Assembly: GCA_963662465.1 (NCBI GenBank) | Contig: OY759599.1 | Span: 5,984,001-6,048,000 of the forward strand | Direction of reading: 5' to 3' | Source: Desulfatiglandales bacterium | GTDB lineage: Bacteria; Desulfobacterota; DSM-4660; Desulfatiglandales; Desulfatiglandaceae | DNA: 64,000 nucleotides | In this document: positions 9,455 to 30,076 of the stretch, in pieces | Numbering within the stretch: the stretch's first letter is position 1 | Layout of the letters: every line of letters begins with the position of its first letter | Notes under the pieces: model-generated | The model's input: only the letters and a program-made list of their open reading frames with translations | Databases searched by the model: none | What the model was told of the DNA's origin: nothing | Made by a program: the position numbers and the translations under genes

Positions 9455-9624
9455 AAGGGAACATGGCGGTGTCATGTTCCCTTTTTCTTCCATTCGATTG
9501 CAAAACCGTGCTGATCCGTTTTTTCTATTATCGTACCTGAGCCTGATCCGGCTCGGAGAGCGGCGCCATTCCCAGTATCCGCGCAATAACCTGACCTTTC
9601 TGGGAAAAGACAAAATCAATAAAA
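9455..9624. repeat. Copy 1 of a ~170-bp imperfect direct repeat (terminator hairpin plus orphan 3' end of the PstS-like gene)
   Basis: Aligns with 11699-11869, about 21 differences by manual count; minus strand 9623-9528 encodes FIDFVFSQKGQVIARILGMAPLSEPDQAQVR*. Confidence 0.92.
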
Positions 9625-9807
9625 TTATTTTTGTGAAAACACGTCATTTTTATCCCGATGGTTACAATATTTGAGAAAAGACTTGATCATCGAATAACAA
9701 GGGAGTATGACTCAATAAGGAAAGGGGGTGATAGGAAAAAAATAAGGTTGGAGGGACAAGCGGGAAGAAAAGAGACGTCCGGTTTAAAACTGTAAGGAGC
9801 AAGGAGA

Positions 9808-11148
9808 ATGAAATCCGTTAAATTTACAATAGTTATCGCGTTGGCTTTAACTATCTCCTTAGTCTTGTTTTACGGTGGTCAGATGGCCCGTTCCGCTGAC
9901 GGTGAAAATCATTGCTTCACCTGCCATACGAATGCCCAAAAGCTGATAAAGATCACAAGGGAGATTGCAAAGGCCAACAAGGACAAACCAGGGGGCTCCG
10001 CTGAAACCGAAGGCGAGGGGTGAGGGGGAGACGTGGAGCCGTTGGCTCCGCACGAAAAGTTGTGGGTTGATAGTGCAATAGCCGAGGATGAAAACCATGG
10101 TGAACTTTGCTGTCACGAATGCCATGGTGGCAATCCCAATGATCCAAATTGGAAAACAGCCCATAAGGGCGTAGTTAAAGATCCTTCATATCCAGACGCT
10201 TCCGAGACATGTGGATCGTGCCATGATGAGATTGCGGAGAATTATAAGAGCAGTCTTCACGTGACGCTTTCCCCATTCAAGAAAATGATAGATATGCGGG
10301 CTAATCCAAACAAGGATGTGCATGCCAAGGTGGATGCCGCCAGAGGGTCCCATTGCAATGCCTGTCACAGCAGTTGCGGTCAATGTCATATCAGCCGCCC
10401 TGAGGCAGTGGGTGGCGGCCTGTTGGAGGGTCACCTTTTCCAGAGAAGACCCCCCATGCATACCGTTTGTACGGGATGCCATGGGAGTCGTATCGAAAAA
10501 GAGTATTTTGGCAAGAACAAGGGTATTCCTCCTGACATTCATAAACAGAAATATTTTAGATGCACCAAGTGTCACAAGGCTGATGAAATGCACGGAGACG
10601 GCAAGGCGTATGCCAACAGACATGAGGTGGAGAACGGTCCAAAGTGTTTAGACTGCCACGAGGATATCTACCAGCAAAAAGCGAAAAATCCCAAAAGCCA
10701 CTGGATCCACAAAGATCAGGTCAGTTGTCAGGTCTGCCATTCCATGCCTTACAAGAATTGTTATAGCTGTCATGTTGGAAAAGACAAACAGGGCTTTACA
10801 TTCTATAAGAACAAGGAATCTCCCATTGAGTTCAAGGTGGGTCTAAATCCCCTGCAATCGGAGAAAAGGCCTGAAAAATTTGTCACACTCCGCCATGTTC
10901 CAGTAGATCATAAGACTTTCGATTTCTATGTGAAAAACGGCTTGTCCAACTTCGACTCGTTTCCTAACTGGAAACTTGCCACACCCCATAATATCAGGCG
11001 ACACACACCTCAAAACAAGACCTGTAATAATTGTCACGGCAACACAGCGTTGTTCTTGCTTGAGAAGGATGTTAAGCCGGATTACCGGAAGGCCAACAGG
11101 AATGTTATTGTGCCTCCGGCCCTGGTTCCCCAAAAAAGGAGCAATTAG
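9808..11148 (+). CDS. Exported multiheme (11 CxxCH) cytochrome c, probable selenoprotein with in-frame UGA (Sec72) at 10021-10023
   Basis: ORFs 9808-10023 and 10033-11148 are in frame; signal peptide and CFTCH before the UGA, 10 CxxCH after it; context GEG-U-GG; SECIS-like hairpin follows. Confidence 0.85.
10032..10054 (+). promoter_or_regulatory. Putative bacterial SECIS element
   Basis: GGAGCC-GTT-GGCTCC stem-loop extended by CGTG/CACG; GU-starting loop begins 17 nt after the UGA. Confidence 0.75.
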
Positions 11149-11215: not shown

Positions 11216-11650
11216 ATGAAAAAACGTTCACTTTTTGTATTTGCGCTGGTATTTATGTTCGTCTTCGCCTTTGCTGTTCCTCAAACTATGGCAGAAGATA
11301 TGACTGCCGAAAATTTCGTTGCAGAAGCGAAAAAGGATGTCTGTGAGGTCTCGGTCTCTGATGCCAAGGGGATGCTGGATAAGGGAGGATGTGTTTTTTT
11401 AGATTGCCGGGAACCAAAGGAATTCAAAATGGGGCATGTCCCGGGCGCCGTCAATATCCCCCGTGGGCTGATGGAATGGAAGGTTTCCAAGAAAATTCCG
11501 GATAAGACCGCCAAAATCGTTGTTTACTGTAAGGTAGGGGGCCGGGGTTGCCTATCCGCCTGTACCCTTTGTCGCATGGGTTACAAAAACGTTGTTAACA
11601 TAGCGGGTGGATGGCAGGCATGGGAAAAGGCGGGGTATCCTGTTGAATAG
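11216..11650 (+). CDS. Exported single-domain rhodanese (sulfurtransferase)
   Basis: Signal peptide; LDCREPKEFKMGHVPGAVNIP, active loop CKVGGR, GGWQAW. Confidence 0.92.
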   Translation: MKKRSLFVFALVFMFVFAFAVPQTMAEDMTAENFVAEAKKDVCEVSVSDAKGMLDKGGCVFLDCREPKEFKMGHVPGAVNIPRGLMEWKVSKKIPDKTAKIVVYCKVGGRGCLSACTLCRMGYKNVVNIAGGWQAWEKAGYPVE

Positions 11651-11698: not shown

Positions 11699-11869
11699 AA
11701 GGGAACATGACGATGTCATGTTCCCTTTTTCTTCTATTCGATCGGCAAAACCATGCGGATCCGTTTTTTCTATTATTTTGTCTGAAGCTGCTCCGGCTCA
11801 GGCAGCGGCGCCATTCCCAGTTTTCGCGCAATAGCCTGACCTTTCTGGGAAAAGACAAAATCGATAAAA
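11699..11869. repeat. Copy 2 of the ~170-bp direct repeat, including a bidirectional terminator at 11699-11730
   Basis: AAGGGAACATGAC-GAT-GTCATGTTCCCTTTTT plus the last 31 codons of the 11773-12600 gene. Confidence 0.92.
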
Positions 11870-15844: not shown

Positions 15845-18800
15845 ATGGACATTACGCGTCGTGATTTCTTCAAGATCACAGGGGCTTCTGCTGCGGGAGC
15901 GGCGATTATGGGTCTGGGCCTTGATTTGAAGCCACTCAAATCCCATGCGCAAACCCTAAAACTTCGCTTCGCCAAAGAAACCACCAGCATCTGCTGTTAT
16001 TGTGCGGTGGGGTGTGGCGTTATCTGCAGCACCGGAGAAGCAGGAGCAGGAAAGATCATCAACATCGAGGGGGACCCGGATCATCCGGTAAATGAAGGGG
16101 CTCTCTGTGCCAAAGGAGCGGCGTTGAGTCAATTGGTCAACAATGACGGCCGGTTGACGATCCCCCTTTATCGGGCGCCTTACAGTACTGAGTGGCGGAA
16201 AGTATCCTGGGACTGGGCACTTACGAGTATCGCGGAAAGGGTCAAGAAGACTCGGGATGCCGACTTTGAACGTAAAAACGCCAAAGGCCAGGTGGTCAAC
16301 CGCACCACGGCTATTGCCAGTGTGGGGAGTTCAGCCCTGGACAATGAGGAGTGCTGGCTGATACAGGCCCTCATGAGGTCGCTGGGGCTGGTCTACATTG
16401 AACACCAGGCCCGTATCTGACACAGCGCTACTGTTGCGGCTCTGGCAGAGTCGTTCGGACGCGGCGCAATGACGAATCACTGGATCGACATCCGAAACAG
16501 TGACTGCATTCTGATCATGGGTTCCAATGCGGCTTCGAATCACCCCATTTCCTTTAAATGGATTACTGAGGCCATGAAGCGTGGCGGCAAGTTAATCAGC
16601 GTTGATCCCCGTTTTACCCAGACCTCAGCGAAGGCTGATTTTTACACTGCTTTGAGATCGGGGACGGATATCGCCTTCCTGGGCGGGATGATCAAATATA
16701 TCCTCGATAACAACAAATACTTCAAAGAGTACGTGTCCGAATATACCAATGCCGCCTTCATCATCGCTGACAGCTATGATTTCAATGACGGTCTCTTCTC
16801 CGGTTACGATGCTGAAAAGCGTAAGTATGACAAGAGCAAGTGGGGTTTCGTAAAGGACGAGAAAGGAATCCCGAAGAAAGATCGCACCCTCCAGAACCCC
16901 CGTTGTGTATTCCAACTGATCCAAAAACACTACAGCCGCTATAACCTGGATACGGTTTCAGCCATCACCGGAACCCCGAAAGAGGATCTGGTGAAAGTCT
17001 ATGAGATGTACTCAGCCACGGGCCGGCAAGGACAAGCCGGGACCATCATGTATGCCATGGGTTGGACCCAGCACACGGTCGGCGTCCAGAATATCAGAAG
17101 CATGGCCATTATCCAGTTGTTGTTAGGAAATATGGGGGTAGCAGGCGGCGGCGTCAACGCCCTGAGGGGAGAATCCAATGTTCAGGGTTCTACGGATCAC
17201 TGCATTCTGTTCCACATCTGGCCGGGTTATCTGAAGACCCCAACGGCTTCCCTGCCCACTTTGGCTGCCTACAACGAAAAATTTACGCCCAAAACCAACG
17301 ATCCCTTAAGCGCCAACTGGTGGGGGAATTATCCCAAGTACAGCGTTAGCCTGCTCAAGTCGTATTTCGGGGACAAGGCGACTGCGGCCAATGATTTTGG
17401 GTATAACTGGCTCCCAAAACTGGATGACGGTGTGACCTATTCATGGCTTGATCTCTTTGACGCCATGTACAGGGGAAAATTCAAAGGCCTTTTTGCCTGG
17501 GGCATGAACCCTGCGGCTTCGGGGGCCAACGCCAATAAGAACCGGCAGTCCATGTCAAAATTGGACTGGATGGTCAATGTTAATATCTTTGACAATGAAA
17601 CCGGTTCTTTCTGGAAAGGTCCGGGCATGGATTCCAAGAAGATAAAGACAGAGGTTTTTATGCTCCCCTGTGCCGTTTCAGTGGAAAAGGAAGGATCCAT
17701 CACCAACAGCGGACGCTGGATGCAGTGGCGTTATAAGGCCGCGAATCCTCCTGCCCAGGCATGGTCTGATGGTAATATTCTGGTAAAATTAGGGGAAAAG
17801 CTTAAAGATCTCTACAAGGGGGGCGGGGTCTTCTCCGAGCCGATCGTCAACCTGAAGTGGGATTACACCCAGCATGGCAAGTTTGACGCCCACGCCATGG
17901 CCAAGGAAATCAACGGCTACTTCCTCAAGGACATGACGATAAAAGGAAAGGCATTCAAGAAGGGAGATCTTGTACCGAGCTTCGCATATCTCCAGAGCGA
18001 TGGTTCCACCAGCAGCGCCAACTGGCTGTACTGTAACTCCTATACGGGTAAGGGTAACATGTCTGCCAGGCGAAAGAGGGAGGAATCGGGCATAGGGCTC
18101 AATCCTGAGTGGGCCTGGTGCTGGCCGGTTAACCGCCGCATCATTTACAACCGAGCATCCGTTGACAAAACCGGGAAACCCTGGGACAAGGAACACCCGG
18201 TGATCGAGTTCAAGGGAAAGGTGGAAAACGGCAAGTATGTGTCCAATAAGTGGGTCGGAGATGTTCCCGACGGGGGCTGGTACCCCATGCAGAACCCAGA
18301 CGGGTCTGAGCGTACGGACACCAAATATCCCTTCATCATGAAACCGGAGGGCCATGCCCATGTGTTTGGACCGGGCCGTGCGGACGGGCCGTTTTCGGAG
18401 CACTACGAGCCGGTGGAAAGCCCTGTTTCGAAACAGCCTTTCTCCAGTCAACTGGCCAGTCCCGTTGCGGTCACATACGGCACAAACATGGATATCTACG
18501 CGTCGGATAATCCCAAGTATCCCTATGTGTGCAGCACCTACCGTGTCTGTGAACACTGGCAGACCGGTATCATGACCCGGTGGCAGCCGTGGCTCCTTGA
18601 AGCCCAGCCCCAGCTCTTTGTGGAGTTGAGCAAGGAACTTGGCGTTGAATTAGGGATCAAGAATGGAGAGAAGGTTACGGTGGAATCGGCCCGCGGCAAG
18701 GTAGAGGCCGTTGCCATGGTGACCATCCGGTTCAAACCCTTCACGATTCAGGGGAAAACCGTACACCAGGTAGGTCTCCCATGGCATTTTGGATGGGTCC

Positions 18801-18910
18801 ATCCCAAGGATGGCGGCGATTCAGCCAACCTGCTGACACCTTCGGCTGGTGATCCTAATACCAGGATTCCCGAAACCAAGGCCTTCATGGTCAATATCAG
18901 AAAGGTATAA
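15845..18910 (+). CDS. fdnG: Periplasmic Mo/W formate dehydrogenase alpha subunit, selenocysteine (UGA at 16418-16420, codon 192)
   Basis: Tat signal TRRDFFK, CCYCAVGC, EHQARI-U-HSATV; in frame with 16469-18910; hairpin downstream of the UGA. Confidence 0.96.
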
Positions 18911-19736: not shown

Positions 19737-19884
19737 TATTTCTAACGCGTCGTTGGTTCTCACCGGTTAACGGAAAAAAGCCTTGACAACGATAGGTTGA
19801 CATTAAGATAATGTGTAACCATTAAGTTAAAATGGGAAGTTTAGGCTAAGCAGGTTTCCGTTAACTCATATGAGGAGGCGCCGA

Positions 19885-20829
19885 ATGAAAGAGGCAAAGG
19901 AATTCTACGAAAGGTTGGAAAGGAAAGGAATCTCACGAAGGGATTTCATGAAGTACTGTGGGGTGGTTACCGCCACCATGGGGCTCTCATCTTCCTTTAT
20001 CCCAAAGGTTGCGGAAGTGTTCGCGGCCCCAAAGCAAAGACCGCCGGTGATATGGCTCCACTTTGCTGAATGCACGGGATGTTCCGAGGCGACCCTTCGT
20101 TCCATGTATCCCTGGATCGATGAACTGGTTCTGGATATACTGGATATTGCCTACCATGAAACCATTATGGCTGCTTCCGGGCGCCAGGCGGAAGATGCGC
20201 TTCATGCTGCCGCCAAAAAGTACAAGGGAAAATATATTTGCGTCGTAGAAGGTGCCATCGCCACCAAATATAACGGGGCTTATGGAAAAATCGCCGGACG
20301 TACATTTCTTGAAGTGGCCAAGGAGATCGTCCCCAATGCCGTCGCCACCATCTGCATCGGAACCTGTTCCTCCTACGGGGGCATCCAGGCGGCAAAACCC
20401 AACCCCGGCGGTTATAAAGGCGTGGGGGAAGCGCTGGGCGTCAAGACCGTCAATATCCCCGGTTGTCCACCCAATCCCATCAACCTGGTAGGCACCATCG
20501 TTAATTACCTTCTTCTCGGCAAACTGCCCGCCCTTGACGATCTGGGCCGCCCCCTCTTTGCCTACGGAAAAACCATACACGATCAATGCCCCAGAAGGTC
20601 CCATTACGAAAACGATGAATTCGTGACGGAATTCGGTTCAAAAGAGGCCCAAATGGGATACTGCCTGTTCAAAATGGGCTGCAAGGGTCCTGAGACCTAC
20701 AATAACTGCCCTACCGCCAAATTCAATGACGGCACCAGCTGGCCCGTGGAAGCGGGCCACCCCTGCATCGGCTGCAGCGAGCCTGACTTCTGGGATAAAA
20801 TGACCCCGTTCTTTGAAGAAACCAGGTAA
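19885..20829 (+). CDS. hydA: Periplasmic [NiFe] hydrogenase small subunit (group 1, Hyn type)
   Basis: Tat SRRDFMK, ECTGCSE, PGCPP, HDQCPRR, GCKGP, GHPCIGC. Confidence 0.95.
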   Translation: MKEAKEFYERLERKGISRRDFMKYCGVVTATMGLSSSFIPKVAEVFAAPKQRPPVIWLHFAECTGCSEATLRSMYPWIDELVLDILDIAYHETIMAASGRQAEDALHAAAKKYKGKYICVVEGAIATKYNGAYGKIAGRTFLEVAKEIVPNAVATICIGTCSSYGGIQAAKPNPGGYKGVGEALGVKTVNIPGCPPNPINLVGTIVNYLLLGKLPALDDLGRPLFAYGKTIHDQCPRRSHYENDEFVTEFGSKEAQMGYCLFKMGCKGPETYNNCPTAKFNDGTSWPVEAGHPCIGCSEPDFWDKMTPFFEETR

Positions 20830-20888
20830 TCGGAATCACAGTCGAATTCGCAATCAAAAAATACTCTTAAGAAAAGAGAGGAGAAAGT

Positions 20889-22535
20889 ATGGGCAAAAGA
20901 ATTATCGTCGATCCGATTACCCGGATAGAGGGGCATTTAAAAATTGAGGTGGAAGTTTCCGGAGGAAAAGTCGTCAATGCCTGGAGTTCCGCGCAAATGT
21001 TCCGGGGCATTGAAATTATATTGCAGGGAAGAGATCCAAGGGATGCACCCCTGTTTGTTCAACGTTCATGCGGCGTTTGCACTTACACCCATTACCTGTC
21101 ATCCATGAGGGCCGTTGAAAACGCCGTAGGCGTGACCATCCCCAAGAATGCCCGTATTGTTCGAAACCTTTTGCACGGCGCACAGTTTCAGCAGGACCAC
21201 ATCACCCATTTTTATCAACTGCATGCCCTGGATTTTGTGGACGTGGTGGATGCCCTCAAAGCAGACCCTCAAAAAACAGCGGCCCTCTCGGCCAACGTCA
21301 GCAATGATCCCCTTGGCGGAACCGCCTATTTCAAGGAAGTTCAGCAAAAAATCAAGACCTTTGTGAACAGTGGGCAATTGGGTCTTTTTGCCAATGGCTA
21401 CTGGGGGAGTTCTGCCTACAAACTGCCGCCGGAAGCCAATCTGATGGCAACGGCCCATTATCTCGAAGCCCTTCGCATCCAGGCCAAAATGGTCCGAATG
21501 CATGCCATTTTCGGCGCCAAAAATCCCCACCTTCAGGCCCTGGCCGTGGGTGGGGTCACCAGCGTTAAAGACCTGACGCCTGACCGTATTGCCGAATTTC
21601 TCTATATCTGGAAAGAGGCTCAGGAATTTGTGCGCAACGTCTATATCCCCGATCTGGTCGCCATTGCATCTTTTTATAAGGACTGGGGAAGCATCGGCGG
21701 CACCTCCAATTTCCTGGCCTGGGGCGATCTGCCCATGTCGGAAAAAGAACCCGAAAGCCTTTTTTTGCCTCGTGGGGTCATCATGAAACGGGACCTCAAA
21801 GGTGTCAAAATGGCTGATCCCAAAAAGGTTACCGAACACATTGATCGCTCCTGGTATGAAGGCAAAGGGGCCAAACATCCCTATAACGGAGAAACCAAAC
21901 CCTATCAGGGCGATCCCAAATACGACACCAATGGCCGGTATTCCTGGTCCAAGGCCCCTCGCTACGAGGACGAAGCCTGTGAAGTGGGTCCCCTGGCGAG
22001 AGTCCTGGTGGCCTATGCCTGGGGCAAAAAGGATTTTCAGGATGTGGTCGACAGCACCTTGAAAAAGCTTAATATTCCGGTGACAGCCCTCTTTTCCACC
22101 CTGGGCCGAACGGCGGCCCGCGGCCTTGAGACTCTCGTCATCGGAAATGCCATGGAAGGCTGGGTCATGGAACTGGTGGAGAACCTGAAATCGGGCGACA
22201 CCGCCACCTGCGCCAAATGGACCATGCCCGACAAAGGCAAAGGGTGCGGATTGAATGATGTGGCCAGAGGCGCTTTGGGGCACTGGATTGAAATTGAAGA
22301 CAAAAAAATTAAGAATTACCAGTATGTGGTGCCATCCACATGGAATCTGGGGCCCAGATGTGAAAAAGGCAAACTGGGACCCGTTGAAGAAGCCCTCATC
22401 GGAACGCCGGTAGCCGATCCCAAAAGACCCCTGGAAATTCTCAGAACCGTCCACTCATTCGATCCCTGCATTGCCTGCGGGGTACATGTCATAGATCCTG
22501 ATTCAAACCAGGTCTATAAAATAAGAGTTGTATAA
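20889..22535 (+). CDS. hydB: [NiFe] hydrogenase large subunit (Cys form, not NiFeSe)
   Basis: DPITRIEGH, RSCGVC, DPCIACGVH plus a cleavable C-terminal tail. Confidence 0.96.
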   Translation: MGKRIIVDPITRIEGHLKIEVEVSGGKVVNAWSSAQMFRGIEIILQGRDPRDAPLFVQRSCGVCTYTHYLSSMRAVENAVGVTIPKNARIVRNLLHGAQFQQDHITHFYQLHALDFVDVVDALKADPQKTAALSANVSNDPLGGTAYFKEVQQKIKTFVNSGQLGLFANGYWGSSAYKLPPEANLMATAHYLEALRIQAKMVRMHAIFGAKNPHLQALAVGGVTSVKDLTPDRIAEFLYIWKEAQEFVRNVYIPDLVAIASFYKDWGSIGGTSNFLAWGDLPMSEKEPESLFLPRGVIMKRDLKGVKMADPKKVTEHIDRSWYEGKGAKHPYNGETKPYQGDPKYDTNGRYSWSKAPRYEDEACEVGPLARVLVAYAWGKKDFQDVVDSTLKKLNIPVTALFSTLGRTAARGLETLVIGNAMEGWVMELVENLKSGDTATCAKWTMPDKGKGCGLNDVARGALGHWIEIEDKKIKNYQYVVPSTWNLGPRCEKGKLGPVEEALIGTPVADPKRPLEILRTVHSFDPCIACGVHVIDPDSNQVYKIRVV

Positions 22536-22552
22536 TGGTCATAAACTGAAAA

Positions 22553-22587
22553 TCTTAACCGCCGCTTCAAAAAGGCGGCGGTTAAGA
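22553..22587 (+). terminator. Stem-loop after the hydrogenase large subunit gene
   Basis: TCTTAACCGCCGC / GCGGCGGTTAAGA 13-bp inverted repeat. Confidence 0.65.
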
Positions 22588-22617
22588 CTTATCGTATTTT
22601 CATTTACATAGCCCTAT

Positions 22618-25365
22618 ATGGCCCAGCACCCCAAAGCATCCGTGCCGGAATCCTGGCTCAAGTTTGTGGTTCACCACCCCTGGTGGGTCATCCTCCCCGT
22701 TGTTCTGTTAACCCTTGTATTTGCCTGGCAAATACCGAATCTTCGATTTGAAACATCCATATACGACTTAACCATTGAGGATCTGCCCCAAACCATCGAA
22801 TACAATGCCTTTAAAAAAGCCTTTGGGTGTGAAGAGATTGTCCTCGTTGTCGCCAGGACCGAAAACATTTTTAATCCGGAAACATTCAGCAGTCTTGACC
22901 GATTGGCCAAAACCTTTGAAAAAATTAAAGGGGTACGGCGAGTCATCAGCCTTCCCGGCATCAAAAAGGCCATGGACATCACCGGAAAATGGACCCTTCC
23001 GGATTTCAAAAAGGAAATCGAACCCGTTACCCTCCTTGAAAAAAATATTATCTCCAAAGACGGTAAAACCACCGTCATATCTCTGATACTGGAAGACACC
23101 AAACAAAAAGATCCCGTCATTGCCGCGATCCAGGACCTGATTGACAAAGAAACAGCCCCTGAGTCCATATACCAGATCGGCATGCCCGTGGTGGCCAGGG
23201 CGTTAACACAGTTTACAGAGCAGGATTTCATAAGACTTCCGCCCATTACCTTTCTCCTCATTGCCCTGGTTCTTTTTCTCCTGTTTCGCAATCTTCGCGG
23301 CGTGTTGATTCCAGCCGGTTCAGTCCTCATTGCACTCATCTGGACATTCGGTCTTATGGCATGGACCGCCATTCCCCTTTCGCTGCTCATCATGATCGTC
23401 CCGATTTTTCTCATTGCCGTAGGCACTGCCTACTGCATGTATATCTTCCCCGAATACGCGTTAGCCCGGCAAACATGTGAAAATCCAAAAGAGGCTTCCT
23501 TTCAATGTTTTGAGCGACTCGGGTTTCCCACTTTCCTGGCCGTGTTCACCACCACCATCGGACTGGGGTCCCTTCTCATCAACAAAATCAGTGAAATCCG
23601 ATTCTTTGCCCTTTTTTCATGCTTCGGCATCCTTGCCATGCTGATCATTTTTCTCACCTTCCTGCCGGCGGTGATGGCGCTTTTGCCCTTCCCCGAAAAA
23701 TCCCACAAAGCTGAACCATCGGGAAAAGAAACCCTGCTGGATCGCCTTCTGTCGGGCATTATCCGGGTGAACCTTCATCACCGGAAAGTTGCGCTGGGGC
23801 TGATCGGGTTAATCTCTCTCCTGGGAATCCTTGGAATCTTACAGGTGCAGGTTGAGACCAACCCCATGGACTTTTTCAAGGAGAACACGCCCATTGCACG
23901 CCACTTTAAAGACATCTACCGGGATATGGCCGGCAGCTTTCCCATCAATGTTGTTATCGACAGCCATCAGGATGATTTTTTTGAAAAACCGGAACACCTG
24001 AAACAAATTGCCAGGCTGCAGAAATTTTTCGCCACCCTGGCGGGGGTGGATAAAACCATCTCCTTTTGCGATTACCTTAAACTGGTCAATTACGCCACCA
24101 ACCAGCATCAAGACGAATTCCATGCGCTGCCGGAAGAGGCCTTCGAGGTTCGCATGCTCATCAACAACTTCAAAACCATGCTGGGCCTTGACATGCTGAC
24201 GCGATTCATAAACGAAAATTTTTCAAGGATCAACATCATCTTAAGAACCCATATTTCCAGTTCCAATGATTTTCTGAACACCCAGAAAAAAATTGAAGCC
24301 TACCTGAATAAAAATATGCCGCCAACATTCTCCTTTCAAGTCACCGGGATCGGCGTCGTGATTTCTCACAGCAGCCGCCTTATCACCGAAGGACAGCTGA
24401 AAAGCCTGTGCATGACTCTCGTGCTGGTGTTTGCCATCATGTTTTTATTGTTCATGTCCTTCAAGGTTGGCATTATCGGCATCCTTCCCAACTGCTTTCC
24501 GATTATTGTCGCCTTTGGCGTCATGGGTTGGGCGGGAATCCCCCTATCCATGGCAACAAGCCTCATTGCCGGCGTTGCCGTCGGTCTGGCGGTAGATGAC
24601 ACCATTCATTATCTGGTTAGCTATAACCATGAATTTAAAAAAGATCTGAACAAGGAACACGCCCTTCAAAATACCATTCGACATATGGGAAAACCCATCA
24701 TCTTCACCACCGTAACCATCAGCCTGGGGTTTTCCATACTCATGTTTTCCAGCTTCAAACCGACGGCCGTTTTTGGTCTTATGATGGTGATTACAATGGT
24801 TTCCGCCCTGGTGGCGGATCTCATTCTCTTGCCCTCCTTGATGCTACATGTGGAACTGGTCACCATCTGGGATCTGCTCCGGTTGAAGCTGGGCAAGGAT
24901 CCCCAGGAAGGAATACCGCTTTTCAAAGGACTTTCCCGCACCCAGGTCCATTATATATTGATGACCGGCAACCTGAAAACCTATGAAGCGGGTGGGGTAG
25001 TCATGACCAAGGGGGAAGTCAGCGACTCCATGTATGCCATCATTTCAGGGAAGTTGGAGGTACTGGGGGGCGCCGATCAAGATATAAACGGTATCATCCG
25101 CCCGAGGAAAGTCATCGCAACGCTTGAGACCGGCAACGTGGTGGGAGAGATGGGCATGATCCGATCCTGCGAAAGATCCGCAACCGTTGTGGCTGCTTCC
25201 CCCTCGGAACTCCTTCAAATCAATGAAAGGATGGTGAAACGACTTCAGTGGCTCTACCCCCCAACAGCTCACCGGTTTTTTTTCAATCTGATGACCATTT
25301 TATGTGATCGATTGCAGAATCTGACGGAATGCTATCTGAAAGAAACCGACAGTGATGCGCATTAA
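22618..25365 (+). CDS. MMPL/RND-family membrane transporter fused to a C-terminal cyclic-nucleotide-binding domain
   Basis: Two MMPL halves (GLAVDDTIH) and a cNMP motif GEMGMIRSCERSATV. Confidence 0.87.
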   Translation: MAQHPKASVPESWLKFVVHHPWWVILPVVLLTLVFAWQIPNLRFETSIYDLTIEDLPQTIEYNAFKKAFGCEEIVLVVARTENIFNPETFSSLDRLAKTFEKIKGVRRVISLPGIKKAMDITGKWTLPDFKKEIEPVTLLEKNIISKDGKTTVISLILEDTKQKDPVIAAIQDLIDKETAPESIYQIGMPVVARALTQFTEQDFIRLPPITFLLIALVLFLLFRNLRGVLIPAGSVLIALIWTFGLMAWTAIPLSLLIMIVPIFLIAVGTAYCMYIFPEYALARQTCENPKEASFQCFERLGFPTFLAVFTTTIGLGSLLINKISEIRFFALFSCFGILAMLIIFLTFLPAVMALLPFPEKSHKAEPSGKETLLDRLLSGIIRVNLHHRKVALGLIGLISLLGILGILQVQVETNPMDFFKENTPIARHFKDIYRDMAGSFPINVVIDSHQDDFFEKPEHLKQIARLQKFFATLAGVDKTISFCDYLKLVNYATNQHQDEFHALPEEAFEVRMLINNFKTMLGLDMLTRFINENFSRINIILRTHISSSNDFLNTQKKIEAYLNKNMPPTFSFQVTGIGVVISHSSRLITEGQLKSLCMTLVLVFAIMFLLFMSFKVGIIGILPNCFPIIVAFGVMGWAGIPLSMATSLIAGVAVGLAVDDTIHYLVSYNHEFKKDLNKEHALQNTIRHMGKPIIFTTVTISLGFSILMFSSFKPTAVFGLMMVITMVSALVADLILLPSLMLHVELVTIWDLLRLKLGKDPQEGIPLFKGLSRTQVHYILMTGNLKTYEAGGVVMTKGEVSDSMYAIISGKLEVLGGADQDINGIIRPRKVIATLETGNVVGEMGMIRSCERSATVVAASPSELLQINERMVKRLQWLYPPTAHRFFFNLMTILCDRLQNLTECYLKETDSDAH

Positions 25366-25479
25366 AGCATAAAATTCTTGAATGATCGTCATGATAACGA
25401 CTATACTGAGTTGCTCTAAACTTTGCGCTTATACATATTCTTACCACAAAGACACAGAAGGGGAAAAACATTTAAATTC

Positions 25480-25634
25480 GGTTCATCGCGGATTAACGTG
25501 AAATCGCGCTTTGAGATTGTTTCGGTTCGGGCTGTAGGTGCGACTTCAGTCGCACAGGGTCGGCTTAATGTGCGACTGAAGTCGCACCTACAATCGGCTC
25601 AGAAGCCAAATCTCACGCGAATCCACGATGAGCC
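25480..25634. mobile_element. 155-bp MITE-like element enclosing a REP doublet
   Basis: 25-bp terminal inverted repeats (20/25 match), flanking 8-bp direct repeat TTAAATTC, internal perfect 24-bp inverted repeat 25533-25556/25569-25592. Confidence 0.75.
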
Positions 25635-25667
25635 TTAAATTCAAACCGGAATCGCATCAATTTTTGG

Positions 25668-26222
25668 GTGAACTCAATGGAAGAAAAAAAGATCACCATC
25701 ATGGGTGTCGGCAATATCCTTTTTACGGATGAAGGCGTCGGTATTCGAGTTCTTGAAGCACTGAACAAACAATATGATTTCCCGCCCAATGTGACAATGG
25801 TCGATGGCGGGGTTCTCGGCATGAACCTGCTGGGGACGATTTCAGAAGCCGATTATCTGATTGTGATCGATGCGGTTCGAAATGGCGGGGAACCTGGTAC
25901 ACTCTACCGTCTTGAGGGCGAAGAAATTCCACAGCGGGTGCTGGCCAAGAATTCCCTTCACCAGGTGGATCTCCTTGAGGCACTTACTTTCTGCCAGGCA
26001 CTGGATAAACAACCTGAAACCCTGATTATCGGAGTCGAACCCGAGGATATCAAAACCGTGGGACTGGCGTTAACAACCCCCGTGGCCGAAAAAGTCCAAC
26101 CCATGATAACAATGGTTCTTTCGGAGCTTACACGGCTTGGGGCTTTTGCTTCCCGGCGTGATCTTTCTAAACCCTTCATCCAAACCGAAGACAAACTATC
26201 CGCCGGTATTCCTTCATTGTAA
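25668..26222 (+). CDS. hyaD: Hydrogenase maturation endopeptidase (HyaD/HybD family); start may be 25677
   Basis: GVGNILFTDEGVG, DGG, IDAV, SLHQ. Confidence 0.93.
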   Translation: MNSMEEKKITIMGVGNILFTDEGVGIRVLEALNKQYDFPPNVTMVDGGVLGMNLLGTISEADYLIVIDAVRNGGEPGTLYRLEGEEIPQRVLAKNSLHQVDLLEALTFCQALDKQPETLIIGVEPEDIKTVGLALTTPVAEKVQPMITMVLSELTRLGAFASRRDLSKPFIQTEDKLSAGIPSL

Positions 26223-26241
26223 ACCAAAGAGAGAAAAAATT

Positions 26242-26475
26242 ATGTGTCTTGCCATACCCGCAAAAGTCATTCACATCACCGACCACATGGGCACGGTCGA
26301 TATGGACGGTACACAGAGGGACGTCAGTCTCCTTCTGCTGTCGGACGCACAAATCGGCAACTATGTCATTGTCCATGCCGGTTTTGCCATTCATCGCATC
26401 AATGAGGCGGAAGCCCAGGCCTCATTAAAACTGTTGCGCGAAATGGCTGCCTTGCCGGAGGCGCGGAAAACATGA
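26242..26475 (+). CDS. hypC: Hydrogenase chaperone HypC
   Basis: MCLAIP N-terminus, VIVHAGFAI. Confidence 0.95.
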   Translation: MCLAIPAKVIHITDHMGTVDMDGTQRDVSLLLLSDAQIGNYVIVHAGFAIHRINEAEAQASLKLLREMAALPEARKT

Positions 26476-26658
26476 CTTCAGTGGAATCATTTCAATTTTC
26501 CACATTTTCAAAGAGCAAACAGGAATCGCCCTCTCGGAATCCCTTGACACAGACTATTTTCTTCCACTATACTTTTTGTGATCTGTTTGACTTTAAATTC
26601 AGTCATAGATGGAAGATCAAATCAACATAACTTACACAAGAAAGGAGGTGAAACCCAA

Positions 26659-27057
26659 ATGACCAAAAGGTTCTACATACTTTTAACCGCTATCTTTACC
26701 TGTCTACTCTTTGTTTCCGTGGGTGTGCTGGTTGCGGCGGATGTTCCCGAAACCGTCACCATTGAAGGGAAAGACTACGCAAAGGACAAGAAAGGCCCGG
26801 TAGAGTTCCATCACCAAAAGCATGTAAGCGATTATAAGTTAGCCTGCACCGATTGCCACCATGTGTACAAGGACGGTAAGAACGTGTGGAAAGAAGGCGA
26901 CAAAGTTCAGAAATGCAGTGAATGCCATGATCCTGCCGAAAAACAGGGGGACGTTATGAAACTGCAAAACGCTTACCACCGGAACTGCAAGAATTGCCAT
27001 AAGGAAAAGGGAAAAGGTCCTTTCAAAAAATGTAACGATTGCCACGCCAAGAAGTAG
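26659..27057 (+). CDS. Tetraheme cytochrome c3
   Basis: AGGAGG RBS, signal peptide, PVEFHHQKH, four CxxCH. Confidence 0.93.
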   Translation: MTKRFYILLTAIFTCLLFVSVGVLVAADVPETVTIEGKDYAKDKKGPVEFHHQKHVSDYKLACTDCHHVYKDGKNVWKEGDKVQKCSECHDPAEKQGDVMKLQNAYHRNCKNCHKEKGKGPFKKCNDCHAKK

Positions 27058-27270
27058 GTGCGAAAACCCTTACATGCATCAGCTTCTTTACAGTTCATAG
27101 CCGTCTTCCCCCATAAAAAAAGGAAGACGGCTTTTTTCATTTGGTTTTGATTGGAGAAAAGAGAAGATAAGCCTCAGCTGCGATTCACCCAAGAAAATCT
27201 GGTAGTGGTTAGGGGTTTCATGCTGCTTTTTTTTGTTGGTCCCTCTTTCGGAAAATAACAGCCATCTAAC

Positions 27271-27326
27271 AAAAGAAGCGCTGCGGTTTGTTGGAAAAGT
27301 TCCCTTCAAACCACAGCGCTTCTTTT
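27271..27326. terminator. Terminator between convergent cytochrome c3 and ferredoxin genes (second hairpin at 27099-27137)
   Basis: AAAAGAAGCGCTG...CAGCGCTTCTTTT; AGCCGTCTTCC/GGAAGACGGCT plus T-run. Confidence 0.7.
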
Positions 27327-27346
27327 AATTGAAACAAATAATTCTT

Positions 27347-27535
27347 TTAGACTTCGGTTACCGTAATGGCTTCATGCTCACACACTTCAATACAGCTCTC
27401 ACAACCCAGACACTCTTCCGCGTTTACGGGATCCGATTTTCCATCCACCATCTCGTAGACATCGACGGGACAGACCTCAACACACTCTTCACAACCTTCA
27501 CATTTGTCTTTATCAACAACTACTTCATAACCCAT
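27347..27535 (-). CDS. 2[4Fe-4S] ferredoxin
   Basis: CEGCEECVEVCP and CLGCESCIEVC; AGGAGG RBS. Confidence 0.93.
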   Translation of the reverse strand: MGYEVVVDKDKCEGCEECVEVCPVDVYEMVDGKSDPVNAEECLGCESCIEVCEHEAITVTEV

Positions 27536-27708
27536 CTGACGTAACCTCCTGATTTATGTTGAAACACCTTGCATATAAAGAAAAATATTGAAACTTTCAC
27601 CAATCGCGGCTTACCTAACAGAGTAAGTTCTTTGTGTCAAGTCTTTTCATCTCACAACCCTTTTTACCAACCCACCCGAATGGTACGCCGCGAATTGAAC
27701 CCTTACTT

Positions 27709-28866
27709 TTATGCCGCCGCTTCCTCTTTAATTGACACGGCAATCTTATACAAAATCGTCAACACAAAGAATCCAGCCGCCAGCACGCCAATCGTAATTA
27801 ATACCTCCAACGTCGTCGGCCAATAAGGCGTCACGGTTTCAAAACAGTTTGGCGTAAAGCCGCCGATGATCAACCCGAGCCCCTTATCAATCCAGGTGGC
27901 GATAATCACCGACACACATGCCACCGCCAAGGTATCTTCCTTGCGCCTTGTTGCCGGGACGATCAACAGAACCAGCGCCACCACGGCAAAACCGGTCGCA
28001 GTCCACATCCAGGGAGCCAATTTTCCATATCCGTCCAAGCCATGAAAAAGATACTCAAACGCATGCATATGCCCCGGGATCTGACTGTAAAAAGCCGTAA
28101 ATAACTCAAGCAGATAGAAAAATACATTGATAATCATGGCGTAGGCGATAATGCCGCCCAACGTTCGAATTTGCTCCTTTCCGGGATCAAATTTGGAAAC
28201 CTTCTTGACGATCAGGCACAATAGCACCAGTAACGCGGGTCCCGCACAAAACGCAGAGGAAAGAAACCTGGCGGCCATGATGGCGCTCAGCCAGAAATGC
28301 CTTCCCGGAAGGCCGGCATACAGAAAGGCCGTCACCGTATGAATCGTAAAAGCCCAGGGAATGGAAACATAGGCCAAAACCTTGACCCACTTCTGATACT
28401 TGATTCCTTTTCTCTCAGCAGCCAAAACGTTCCACCCCACCACAATATTCAGCAGGAGATAAACGTTGAGGACAATCATATCCCAGAACAGGATCGAATT
28501 GGGAGTGGGGTAAAGAATAACATTCATGATGCGAACCGGATTGCCAAGGTCCACAAATACAAACAGAAGACACATGAGAATGGCGGCAATGGCCAGAAAT
28601 TCACCCAGGATGGTAATCCTGCCAAAAGCTTTATAATCATGTAGATAATAGGGTAGCACTACCATCACACCCCCGGCGGCGATACCCACGAAATAGGTAA
28701 GCTGTCCGATATAGAGCCCCCATGATACGTCTCTGCTCAAGCCCGTAATTCGCAGGCCTTCAAAATACTGATAGATGTAACATCCGGCACCTATCCCGAT
28801 CAAAGCCAGCAGAAAAATGAGCCATGCCCAATAGCCTGTCGTTCCCTTTATCGCTCTGTCAAGCAT
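27709..28866 (-). CDS. dsrP: DsrP, NrfD-family membrane subunit
   Basis: ITGLSRDVSWGLYI, IHTVTAFL; operon position. Confidence 0.93.
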   Translation of the reverse strand: MLDRAIKGTTGYWAWLIFLLALIGIGAGCYIYQYFEGLRITGLSRDVSWGLYIGQLTYFVGIAAGGVMVVLPYYLHDYKAFGRITILGEFLAIAAILMCLLFVFVDLGNPVRIMNVILYPTPNSILFWDMIVLNVYLLLNIVVGWNVLAAERKGIKYQKWVKVLAYVSIPWAFTIHTVTAFLYAGLPGRHFWLSAIMAARFLSSAFCAGPALLVLLCLIVKKVSKFDPGKEQIRTLGGIIAYAMIINVFFYLLELFTAFYSQIPGHMHAFEYLFHGLDGYGKLAPWMWTATGFAVVALVLLIVPATRRKEDTLAVACVSVIIATWIDKGLGLIIGGFTPNCFETVTPYWPTTLEVLITIGVLAAGFFVLTILYKIAVSIKEEAAA

Positions 28867-28874
28867 AACCTACC

Positions 28875-29690
28875 TCATATAATATAAAATACGTTTGGTC
28901 CGGTACCCAAAGCGGGTTTTCTTCTCACAGAATAGTGGTCCCGGAGCAATTTTCTAACGTTGGATTCAGGATTTGCGAGATCTCCAAAATGCAACGCACT
29001 GACTTTAATTTTATCACAGGCCTGCACGCATGCGGGAAGCTCTCCCTTGGTCACCAGTTCGGTACAGAAGTTACACTTTTCAACAACGCCCTTTGATCTT
29101 TCCGGATAAGCCTTATTGGTGGGAAAATCAGGATTCAGTTTTTTCGGAGCCTTCCTGGGATTTCCCCAGTTAAAGCTTCTGGAACCATAAGGACACGCCG
29201 CCATGCAGAACCTGCAGCCGATACAGCGATGCATATCCATGGCAACAATGCCATCCTCTTCCCGCTTGAATGTTGCCTGGGTGGGACACACCCGAACGCA
29301 GGGAGGATTGAAGCAGTGGTTGCACATGAGGATAAACGGTTTGCCTTCAACACGCTCATCGATGAATTCGTTGGGATGATCCGGAAACACATGCTCGTAC
29401 TCATCCTGCCAGATCCACTTAATGGCATGTTGAGGCTCTCCCCAGTCCGGTACGTTGTGTTCCCGATGACAGGCCACCATACAGTCTTTGCAGGCCTTTT
29501 TTTCCTGCTGGGCCAAACATTTCCGCATATCGATGACCATGGCCCACCGTTTCCCCTGGGTCAGCGGGATGCCTGCCGTAGAGGCTTCCAATTTCCCTGG
29601 GGCGAGGATATCAATAGCCGCTGCTCCCCCGAGACCGAACAGGGTGGCGTAGCCGGCGATTTTCAGGAATTCTCTTCTGTCTACCCCCAT
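28875..29690 (-). CDS. dsrO: DsrO, periplasmic Fe-S subunit
   Basis: Tat DRREFLK, CNHCFNPPCVRVCP, CIGCRFCMAACP. Confidence 0.93.
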   Translation of the reverse strand: MGVDRREFLKIAGYATLFGLGGAAAIDILAPGKLEASTAGIPLTQGKRWAMVIDMRKCLAQQEKKACKDCMVACHREHNVPDWGEPQHAIKWIWQDEYEHVFPDHPNEFIDERVEGKPFILMCNHCFNPPCVRVCPTQATFKREEDGIVAMDMHRCIGCRFCMAACPYGSRSFNWGNPRKAPKKLNPDFPTNKAYPERSKGVVEKCNFCTELVTKGELPACVQACDKIKVSALHFGDLANPESNVRKLLRDHYSVRRKPALGTGPNVFYII

Positions 29691-30076
29691 TACTTTTTCT
29701 CCTCCGGCGCGATATGACAATCCCAGCAATAAGGATTAACGCTCAAATAGTTGTGACATTGATCACAGAATTTGGTTTTGTCGGAATGGCAATCCATACA
29801 GGTCACTTGCAGGCTCTTATAATAAACTTTGCCGTCGGCAGCCTTGTAATAACGTTCACCGTCCCTCACAGCTGTATGCCGCCATTCATCCAGCATGGTA
29901 AAATGTGATTCTCGCATATACTCTTTCGGCGCCACACACACTTTTGCTTCCTTGGCTTTTTCCGTCAGCTGCGGGTCCGGCGCCTTTGCGGCAGTCCCCG
30001 CATTGTAAATAAAAGGCGAAAGAAACAGACCGATACCAATGATCAGGCCAACAATAATCTTGCCTCCATCATACAT
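29690..30076 (-). CDS. dsrJ: DsrJ triheme cytochrome c
   Basis: MYDGGKII, CV...MRESH, CMDCH, CDQCH, CWDCH. Confidence 0.93.
   Translation of the reverse strand: MYDGGKIIVGLIIGIGLFLSPFIYNAGTAAKAPDPQLTEKAKEAKVCVAPKEYMRESHFTMLDEWRHTAVRDGERYYKAADGKVYYKSLQVTCMDCHSDKTKFCDQCHNYLSVNPYCWDCHIAPEEKK

Follow-up and report, generated by a model that had tools for sequence, protein, structure and literature searches.

The window analysed here, a stretch of 64,000 nucleotides (nt) from the genome of a Desulfatiglandales bacterium (contig OY759599.1), contains on its forward strand a gene for a multiheme cytochrome c (9808-11148) whose coding sequence is split by an in-frame TGA codon. The upstream part is an open reading frame (ORF) of 71 amino acids (AA) at 9808-10023, which starts MKSVKFTIVIALALTISLVLFYGGQMARSADGENHCFTCH and ends ETEGEG, followed by the TGA at 10021-10023. 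Positions 9808 and 10033 share one frame, and TGA GGG GGA GAC joins the short ORF to a second one of 371 AA (10033-11148) that closes with a TAG stop (11146-11148). The initial annotation had described this split and proposed a single undecaheme protein of 446 AA with selenocysteine (Sec, U) at position 72. Translation reproduces the split, and the proposal is supported by the conserved TGA, the Cys-containing homologues, the covarying hairpin and the sel genes described below. The read-through product is 446 AA long and carries 11 CxxCH heme motifs, one before and ten after the UGA.

Residues 1-30 (9808-9897, plus strand) form a probable signal peptide of the Sec export type, judged by eye from the hydrophobic N-terminus and modelled as a helix spanning residues 2-31; cleavage would occur after A-R-S-A. 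The N-terminus of the downstream ORF, MEPLAPHEKLWVDSAIAEDENHG, is not hydrophobic, and the earlier remark that this part lacks a signal peptide holds in translation. Since heme attachment is periplasmic, this argues that both ORFs encode one exported polypeptide. The full-length orthologues, each with one in-frame TGA, and a structural model obtained with AlphaFold2 agree with a single gene. Heme motif 1, CFTCH (residues 36-40; 9913-9927, plus strand), lies upstream of the UGA, and none of its C36, C39 and H40 varies among 49 family proteins. Motifs 2-11 (10111-11037, plus strand) start at 10111, 10210, 10354, 10375, 10468, 10561, 10645, 10726, 10759 and 11023; all of their 20 Cys and 10 His residues are invariant in the 49 relatives.

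The UGA at 10021-10023 (plus strand) is predicted to be read as Sec72 within a G-E-G-U-G-G motif. The corresponding codon was followed in two sets of genomes, 41 related ones and 209 of the class. All ten full-length matches in the related set, which are 46-100% identical to the query, contain exactly one in-frame TGA. The class scan yielded 58 matches with E ≤ 1e-40, of which 56 span residue 72; 50 of these have one TGA and 6 have none. A pattern scan of one genome per species retrieved 574 loci encoding relatives, and TGA occupies the aligned codon in 79 of the best 80, the remaining locus being masked. The surrounding motif in relatives is G-[EKG]-G-U-[GA]-[GS], down to 46% identity, within a longer context G-[EK]-G-U-G-G-x-V-x-P-L-x-x-H-E-K or small variants of it. 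Among the patterns that would speak against Sec, the initial annotation had named homologues occurring as two genes with variable spacing or frame, and Trp, Arg or Gly at this position. Homologues are encoded in a single frame with no spacing between the two parts, and Trp was found in one orthologue only (genome G062, protein P0087).

It had also been suggested that homologues should show TGA or Cys at position 72, and Cys is indeed present in several of them. Five of the six class matches without TGA (L050-L054) are ten-heme paralogues, 37-39% identical to the query, with Cys in an EG-C-GG context. A 444-AA metagenome protein (P0082), 60% identical to the query, has GEW-C-GG at the site. Relatives with E ≤ 1e-30 fall into 207 clusters at 50% identity, and the 150 best cluster representatives were taken as a distant set. 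In this set 41 sequences span the site, with Cys in 14 and other residues in 27, while 73 are fragments that are uninformative there. The other 36 of the 150 start at most 6 residues past the Sec position, which marks them as truncated at the UGA.

A hairpin resembling a selenocysteine insertion sequence (SECIS) lies directly downstream of the codon, at 10033-10051 on the plus strand. Positions 10033-10040 and 10044-10051 form a stem of 8 base pairs (bp) closed by a GUU loop (10041-10043). Its core, GGAGCC (10035-10040) and GGCUCC (10044-10049), was already part of the initial annotation, together with the distance of 17 nt between the A of the UGA and the loop G, and both stand as written. 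Counted from the U of the UGA, the loop G follows after 20 nt in 70 loci and after 23 nt in 9 loci, a spacing which we take to be close to the geometry of E. coli fdhF. No Rfam family matches the hairpin region.

Comparison of relatives supports the hairpin. Over an alignment of 46 orthologues, 95.7% of the cells of the 8-bp helix are paired, versus 25-50% with slid partners; in a wider set of 81 sequences (61 distinct) the values are 90.0% and 33-50%. Within the latter set pair 7-17 is CG in 28 sequences and AU in 25, and pair 8-16 is GC in 38 and UA in 22. Four pairs change on both sides, and the covariation score of 0.336, compared to 0.163 in shuffles, was reached by none of 500 shuffles. 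The encoded residues switch among V-E-P-L-A-P, V-A-P-L-E-P, L-A-P-L-A-P and V-T-P-L-E-L while the complementarity of the stem is kept. Synonymous variation is frozen within the stem and loop. Across 68 distinct sequences the third position of the Val codon +4 has an entropy of 0.22 bits, and those of codons +6 (Pro) and +7 (Leu) have 0.0 bits each, whereas the invariant Gly codons nearby (-3, -1, +1 and +2) vary freely, with 1.7-2.0 bits. This appears as a clean textbook case of a SECIS within a coding region, where amino acids swap (E/A to A/E) and the RNA pairing is preserved. The hairpin is absent from the Cys paralogues. The conservation check proposed earlier thus gave compensatory changes in orthologues and loss of the structure where Cys replaces Sec.

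The source genome (G000) possesses matches to selB (382 bits), selA (614 bits), selD (373 bits) and tRNA-Sec (70.7 bits), all above the respective cut-offs. The selD match (G000:C1:5156011-5156934, 373.5 bits) has one in-frame TGA, suggesting that SelD itself is a selenoprotein here. Another Sec codon is found in the window in the gene of the periplasmic formate dehydrogenase FdnG (15845-18910, plus strand), whose single TGA (near 16418) encodes Sec192 in ...QARI-U-HSATV; this confirms the earlier statement that the fdnG TGA occupies the canonical ...ARI-U-HS... position. ORF callers split FdnG into pieces of 191 and 813 AA, as they do for the cytochrome. Presence of the sel genes and their co-occurrence with the cytochrome had both been proposed as checks. 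The former holds, whereas the latter does not discriminate because selB is present in 168 of the 209 class genomes (90 of the 93 high-quality ones).

We consider it almost certain from these comparisons that the UGA at 10021 is recoded as Sec by SelB acting at the hairpin 10033-10051, and that gene 9808-11148 encodes an exported protein of 446 AA with eleven covalently bound hemes and U72. Transcript data point in the same direction. In two metatranscriptome runs of one study, contigs from a relative about 92% identical bridge the UGA (record 6, 9795-10238; record 21, 9919-10397). The differences listed for this relative (9954-10194) fall in third codon positions of a single frame on both sides of the UGA, which again argues for one polypeptide, and none of them is located between 10015 and 10061. 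In run X1 the stretch is found unchanged, but the assembly may itself derive from this run. Runs with shares below 0.2, from salt-lake and aquatic metagenomes, were not used as habitat evidence.

At the domain level the protein matches only generic multiheme profiles above cut-off (Pfam PF14537, PF14522 and PF13435). No NCBIfam model claims it; the single match in that scan, to ExtM, is weak (42.6 bits for a cut-off of 800) and covers short heme motifs. AlphaFold2 supplied with the 49 close relatives gave a mean predicted local distance difference test (pLDDT) of 44, and a deeper alignment of 113 rows was needed to reach a pLDDT of 94.2 and a predicted template modelling score of 0.87 for the whole chain. 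Residues 61-80 are modelled at about 90-92. The G-E-G-U-G-G loop is therefore probably ordered in the model, and not flexible as the initial annotation had assumed. The confident folding of the whole chain, these residues included, also argues for a single polypeptide.

The closest fold is that of the octaheme tetrathionate reductase (OTR) from Shewanella oneidensis (PDB 1sp3, chain A), with Z 8.8 and a root-mean-square deviation of 4.5 Å over 261 residues (model 94-444 versus chain 5-434). Subsequent matches, with Z 2.9-4.5, are hydroxylamine oxidoreductase, octaheme nitrite reductase, OcwA, MtrA and MccA. Foldseek weakly agrees on 1sp3 (E 1.6e-3, probability 0.99) and finds nothing at E ≤ 0.001. 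A profile of the family compared to PDB sequences retrieves 1sp3 at E 2.1e-12 with the heme motifs aligned in order; phmmer against the same sequences gave just a weak cytochrome c552 match. In the model, the protein is thus an OTR-like ten-heme core (94-444) preceded by a 93-residue N-terminal extension that holds heme 1, a helix and the Sec loop. The profile search also matched chain A of PDB 28pb, a solved 278-AA 'Cytochrome c' (E 5.2e-12). The match covers positions 81-155 and 246-423 of the profile and takes in the beta-rich part at the C-terminus; this chain did not appear in the fold searches.

All 22 invariant Cys residues in the 49 relatives lie in CxxCH motifs and no other Cys is conserved. 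Nine His residues outside the motifs are conserved (H97, H119, H151, H209, H245, H262, H298, H301 and H394). Nine such residues for eleven hemes imply that one or two hemes lack a distal His ligand, a situation that, on sequence grounds, resembles that of catalytic multiheme enzymes. H82 was considered as a further ligand and rejected as it is not conserved outside the Sec-type clade. R164 and R228 are conserved in the wider family. R228 is retained in 93% of the Sec- or Cys-type representatives but in only 44% where position 72 holds a different residue, a weak pointer to the region of heme 6.

The cytochrome gene is followed after 68 nt by a gene for a secreted single-domain rhodanese of 144 AA (11216-11650, plus strand; Pfam PF00581, E 3.5e-24). 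Its active-site loop is C105-K-V-G-G-R110, with the Cys codon at 11528-11530. In 57 orthologues C105, G108 and R110 are invariant and the loop reads C105-K-x-G-G-R110; some orthologues have lipoprotein-type signal sequences. Of 47 Sec-type loci, 44 have a rhodanese downstream of the cytochrome; two of the others break off within 172 nt, and the third (L041) has none over 1485 nt. Overall, a rhodanese is present in 102 of 134 loci. No rhodanese was found by tblastn in four of the five Cys-type loci; two of those loci were also viewed with long flanks, and in both a rhodanese-domain protein of 343-347 AA is encoded immediately after the cytochrome. P0134 and P0148 are fusions that join the cytochrome and two rhodanese domains in one chain. 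Such fusions probably explain the JGI label 'thiosulfate/3-mercaptopyruvate sulfurtransferase' attached to many truncated entries.

The closest known parallel is MccSep (ExtKL, GSU2937-2936) of Geobacter sulfurreducens, a Sec-containing five-heme polysulfide reductase in which Sec325 attacks polysulfide or selenite beside a His/Cys heme (PMC13510729). Both proteins are periplasmic multiheme cytochromes c with one Sec, encoded by genes that are split into two ORFs at an in-frame UGA, with a SECIS-like hairpin right behind this codon, and both have Cys-type relatives. However, MccSep has five hemes, its Sec is located in a C-terminal Ig-like domain (DG-U-P) and it has a conserved heme-ligating Cys (PMC13510729). 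The present protein has eleven hemes, Sec72 in an N-terminal extension (GEG-U-GG), and no conserved Cys outside CxxCH that could ligate a heme. The MccSep/ExtKL model NF040886 (cut-off 250 bits) matches neither this protein at E ≤ 0.1 nor anything in the whole genome, in agreement with the earlier opinion that this is not ExtKL. By analogy, MccSep is likely to be a useful working model, with hemes as the electron suppliers and a selenolate that attacks the bond between two chalcogens. ExtH, a rhodanese-like lipoprotein, belongs to the same Geobacter gene cluster as ExtKL. That cluster is named in an earlier study (PMC5877670).

OTR is itself a periplasmic multiheme reductase of a sulfur compound, and the likeness extends to the fold of the heme core. 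It has eight hemes, a Lys-ligated active-site heme and an active-site Cys. The present protein differs by three additional hemes and by the 93-residue extension, whose heme 1 and Sec lie outside the structural match; neither the Lys ligand nor the active-site Cys of OTR appears to have a conserved counterpart. The OTR model TIGR04315 gave no match at E ≤ 0.1 and neither did NF041027, which describes the GSU2204-family CXXCH selenoprotein. In the passages searched, a 2026 review of the prokaryotic selenoproteome lists OTR among the families with Sec members and names ExtKL, GSU2204 and OTR as heme-related families; the eleven-heme family is not covered in those passages (PMC13188914). The entry NF049953 ('Hypothetical protein DG', GUxG in the table of that review) was tried as a name for the family and rejected, since this model of 172 positions is unrelated and gave no relevant match. 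Full-text literature searches, to which subscription journals and supplements do not belong, returned no paper on an eleven-heme Sec family.

Other sulfur systems offer partial parallels. In Wolinella succinogenes, Sud, a periplasmic rhodanese-like protein, transfers polysulfide sulfur and feeds the polysulfide reductase Psr. Here too a small secreted single-Cys rhodanese accompanies a putative sulfur reductase that faces the periplasm, and Sud-Psr can serve as a model for substrate delivery. Psr is however a molybdopterin enzyme and not a cytochrome, and no homology is claimed. TsdA and SoxAX are c-type cytochromes with a His/Cys-ligated heme acting on thiosulfate and tetrathionate (PMC13510729). 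Unlike the present protein they are dihemes without Sec, and they gave no sequence or fold match in the phmmer, Foldseek, structure or profile searches.

The co-occurrence or fusion with rhodanese, the single reactive chalcogen, the catalytic-type heme inventory, the OTR-like fold and the MccSep precedent together suggest a periplasmic Sec-dependent reductase of sulfane sulfur, or of a related S-S or S-Se compound, working with the co-encoded rhodanese. By analogy with these systems, such a function has about an even chance of being correct. Sulfane sulfur (or selenium) would be bound to Cys105 of the rhodanese in the form of a persulfide. The U72 selenolate could then attack the S-S (or S-Se) bond of this carrier, or that of free polysulfide, tetrathionate or thiosulfate. 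The resulting selenenylsulfide would be reduced by electrons arriving through the heme chain, with release of sulfide. These electrons are likely to come from the periplasmic formate dehydrogenase, the hydrogenase and the cytochrome c3 whose genes lie nearby. Taken as a whole, a Sec-recoded eleven-heme cytochrome that acts with its rhodanese as a Sec-dependent sulfur reductase is a likely explanation of the locus.

Several observations weigh against this explanation. The hairpin is convincing solely through comparison, because the fold of the single sequence is unremarkable: RNAfold on 61 nt gives z = -1.0, and 30 of 200 shuffles fold equally well. Of the 50 genomes with the TGA, 42 have a selB match and eight do not; all eight are metagenome-assembled genomes (MAGs) that are 73-96% complete. 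Transcript support is weak, as it comes from two runs of one study, concerns a relative only and could reflect DNA carry-over. At the residue level, 27 of the 41 site-spanning distant representatives carry neither Sec nor Cys (A, W, Y, L and others), so that a chalcogen is dispensable for the fold. A Lys ligation comparable to that of OTR was sought at K158, the Lys nearest to the aligned OTR position, and is not supported, as only 36 of 110 sequences have K there and 20 have R. Adjacency to formate dehydrogenase is not universal, since it is absent in G055 and in most loci of family f1. The proposed function is derived from gene neighbourhood, fusion and fold analogy.

A last point of this kind comes from the G062 orthologue, identical to P0087, in which TGG (Trp) replaces the TGA and the rhodanese is lost. 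This locus (L049 / L073, G062:C1:1639173-1640471) is the only orthologue with Trp at the Sec codon, and it retains the hairpin. No rhodanese is found within 2982 nt downstream, and FdnG directly adjoins the cytochrome. The selB match of this genome contains an in-frame TAG, while its FdnG retains the TGA, and for this latter reason the Trp is regarded as a single derived case. Either this lineage is losing the chemistry of the enzyme, or there are errors in the assembly, a single contig scored as 81% complete.

Three other readings have to be compared with a Sec-recoded sulfur reductase. It is exceedingly improbable that the UGA is a true stop, the locus then being a pseudogene or the source of two products, a monoheme peptide of 71 AA and a decaheme protein of 371 AA. 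The same holds for a read-through that inserts Trp or some other standard amino acid. Gene callers do annotate two pieces, one orthologue has TGG, and a GGAG lies 2 nt before a GTG at 10033, but this GGAG is not conserved and other loci read GGCGGCGCTGTG. A nonsense mutation would not persist at the same codon across species, as the TGA does in 79 of 80 of them with identities as low as 46%. A decaheme protein starting at 10033 would have no signal peptide despite its need for periplasmic heme attachment. Moreover, the hairpin covaries, and Cys substitutes for the codon in paralogues. A change of substrate within the same enzymatic frame, the protein reducing or detoxifying selenium or tellurium oxyanions (selenite or tellurite) with the rhodanese as selenium carrier, seems quite improbable. 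The sole NCBIfam match is to ExtM, which belongs to a selenite/tellurite reduction operon, and MccSep reduces selenite besides polysulfide (PMC13510729). The ExtM match is nevertheless far under the cut-off and restricted to short heme motifs, and the contexts examined contain no selenite-specific genes. The family is moreover spread, according to record titles, among lineages of sulfate reducers and syntrophs from marine and freshwater sediments. In such sediments sulfur species far exceed selenium.

The remaining reading concerns the role of U72 rather than the substrate. U72 could mainly bind one heme as its axial (distal) ligand. The result would be a natural heme c with His/Sec ligation, whose potential is tuned by U72 in a cytochrome devoted purely to electron transfer, or which is itself the catalytic centre. 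We regard this as unlikely, although it can coexist with the sulfur reductase described above. It would account for the shortage of distal His, and apart from CxxCH the only invariant potential ligands of the N-terminal extension are U/C72 and E70. At position 82, four of the five Cys paralogues have F or C instead of His (L054 retains His), and the wider family has W or Y. The Gly-rich loop, confidently modelled, could reach a heme iron, and His/Cys hemes are catalytic in the related sulfur enzymes TsdA, SoxAX and MccSep (heme 2) (PMC13510729). On the other hand, A, W, Y, L and other residues at the site in 27 of the 41 distant relatives indicate that no ligand is obligatory there, and the strict link with rhodanese fits a chemistry on substrate better than potential tuning. 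The initial annotation had likewise mentioned an axial ligand or a catalytic selenol as possible roles. A bolder combination is clearly unlikely. U72 would stand at, or be bound to, the iron of a heme without distal His, as the first natural Sec-ligated or Sec-gated heme c, and the cytochrome-rhodanese pair would be an enzyme of periplasmic zero-valent sulfur (polysulfide) reduction or disproportionation. If true, it would be a long-sought enzyme of Desulfobacterales-type sulfate reducers, of syntrophs and of the partner bacteria of alkane oxidisers, and it would receive electrons directly from periplasmic formate dehydrogenase or hydrogenase without the molybdopterin enzyme Psr.

Judged from sequence, the cytochrome defines a widespread selenoprotein family that is systematically truncated in databases. 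Record titles place its carriers in Desulfobacterales, Syntrophales, Desulfovibrionaceae, Spirochaetes/Leptospirales and Deferribacteres. Two carriers are cultured according to these titles, Desulfosarcina widdelii PP31 and Dethiosulfatarculus sandiegensis SPR, which makes the family directly testable. The suspicion that it is routinely mis-annotated proved justified, as 118 of the best 120 database entries start just past the TGA. Most are labelled as truncated 'hypothetical protein', corresponding to the 371-AA part, or carry the JGI sulfurtransferase label mentioned above. Because it is nearly always stored in truncated form, reconstructions of sulfur cycling in sediments miss this family, and counts of selenoproteomes are too low. 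Multiheme cytochrome selenoproteins have been known experimentally as an enzyme class only from 2026, with the five-heme MccSep. The present family adds a second, unrelated architecture, which combines eleven hemes and an OTR-like core with a Sec located in an N-terminal extension.

Length variants also occur. Six Sec-type relatives (L128, L132, L134, L137, L148 and L158) are longer, their open frames of 564-587 AA containing 13 CxxCH motifs. Their source MAGs bear the titles Syntrophaceae or Syntrophales, except for that of L148, which is titled Pseudomonadota. Additional multiheme domains are found in P0131, P0136, P0141 and P0172 (650-774 AA). Antisense to the G078 cytochrome gene lies a 439-AA open frame without Pfam match (L075:6643-7959, plus strand). 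Greedy ORF picking prefers this frame over the UGA-split gene, and it is an annotation trap for the family.

The genes surrounding the pair include several redox functions. Within 20 kb in the window are found FdhE, the Sec-containing FdnG, a [NiFe] hydrogenase, HycI, a cytochrome c3 and an NrfD/4Fe-4S pair. The cluster at 19870-29726 comprises the small and large subunits of a [NiFe]/[NiFeSe]-type hydrogenase, an MMPL/cNMP-binding protein, the HycI protease, a class III cytochrome c3 and, on the minus strand, the NrfD-like and 4Fe-4S pair. In family f3, FdnG(Sec)-FdnH-FdhE follows the cytochrome-rhodanese pair in G054 and the cytochrome directly in G062.

A gene for a PAS-sigma54 activator-HTH_8 protein divergently adjoins the cytochrome in 6 of 12 long contexts, four of the Sec type (L074, L075, L077 and L078) and two of the Cys type (L081 and L082). 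These regulators suggest an expression that depends on sigma-54 and is controlled by a signal. In the 64-kb window no sigma-54 activator adjoins the cytochrome gene. A sigma-54 promoter upstream of 9808 was considered by eye; the candidate TGGTTACAATATTTGA is off-register from the consensus and no claim is made for it.

The cytochrome-rhodanese pair is bracketed by a direct repeat of about 170 nt, with copies at 9455-9624 and 11699-11869 that are 87-88% identical. The repeat starts with a terminator-like hairpin, AAGGGAACATG...CATGTTCCCTTTTT, and has only these two copies in the 8.16-Mb genome. In a 95%-identical relative (G010) the downstream copy is complete and the upstream copy is just 68 nt long. 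Five genomes of the same genus without the cytochrome gene have adk, followed by different DNA. The flanking repeats may be the scar of an insertion or duplication of the two-gene cassette behind adk.

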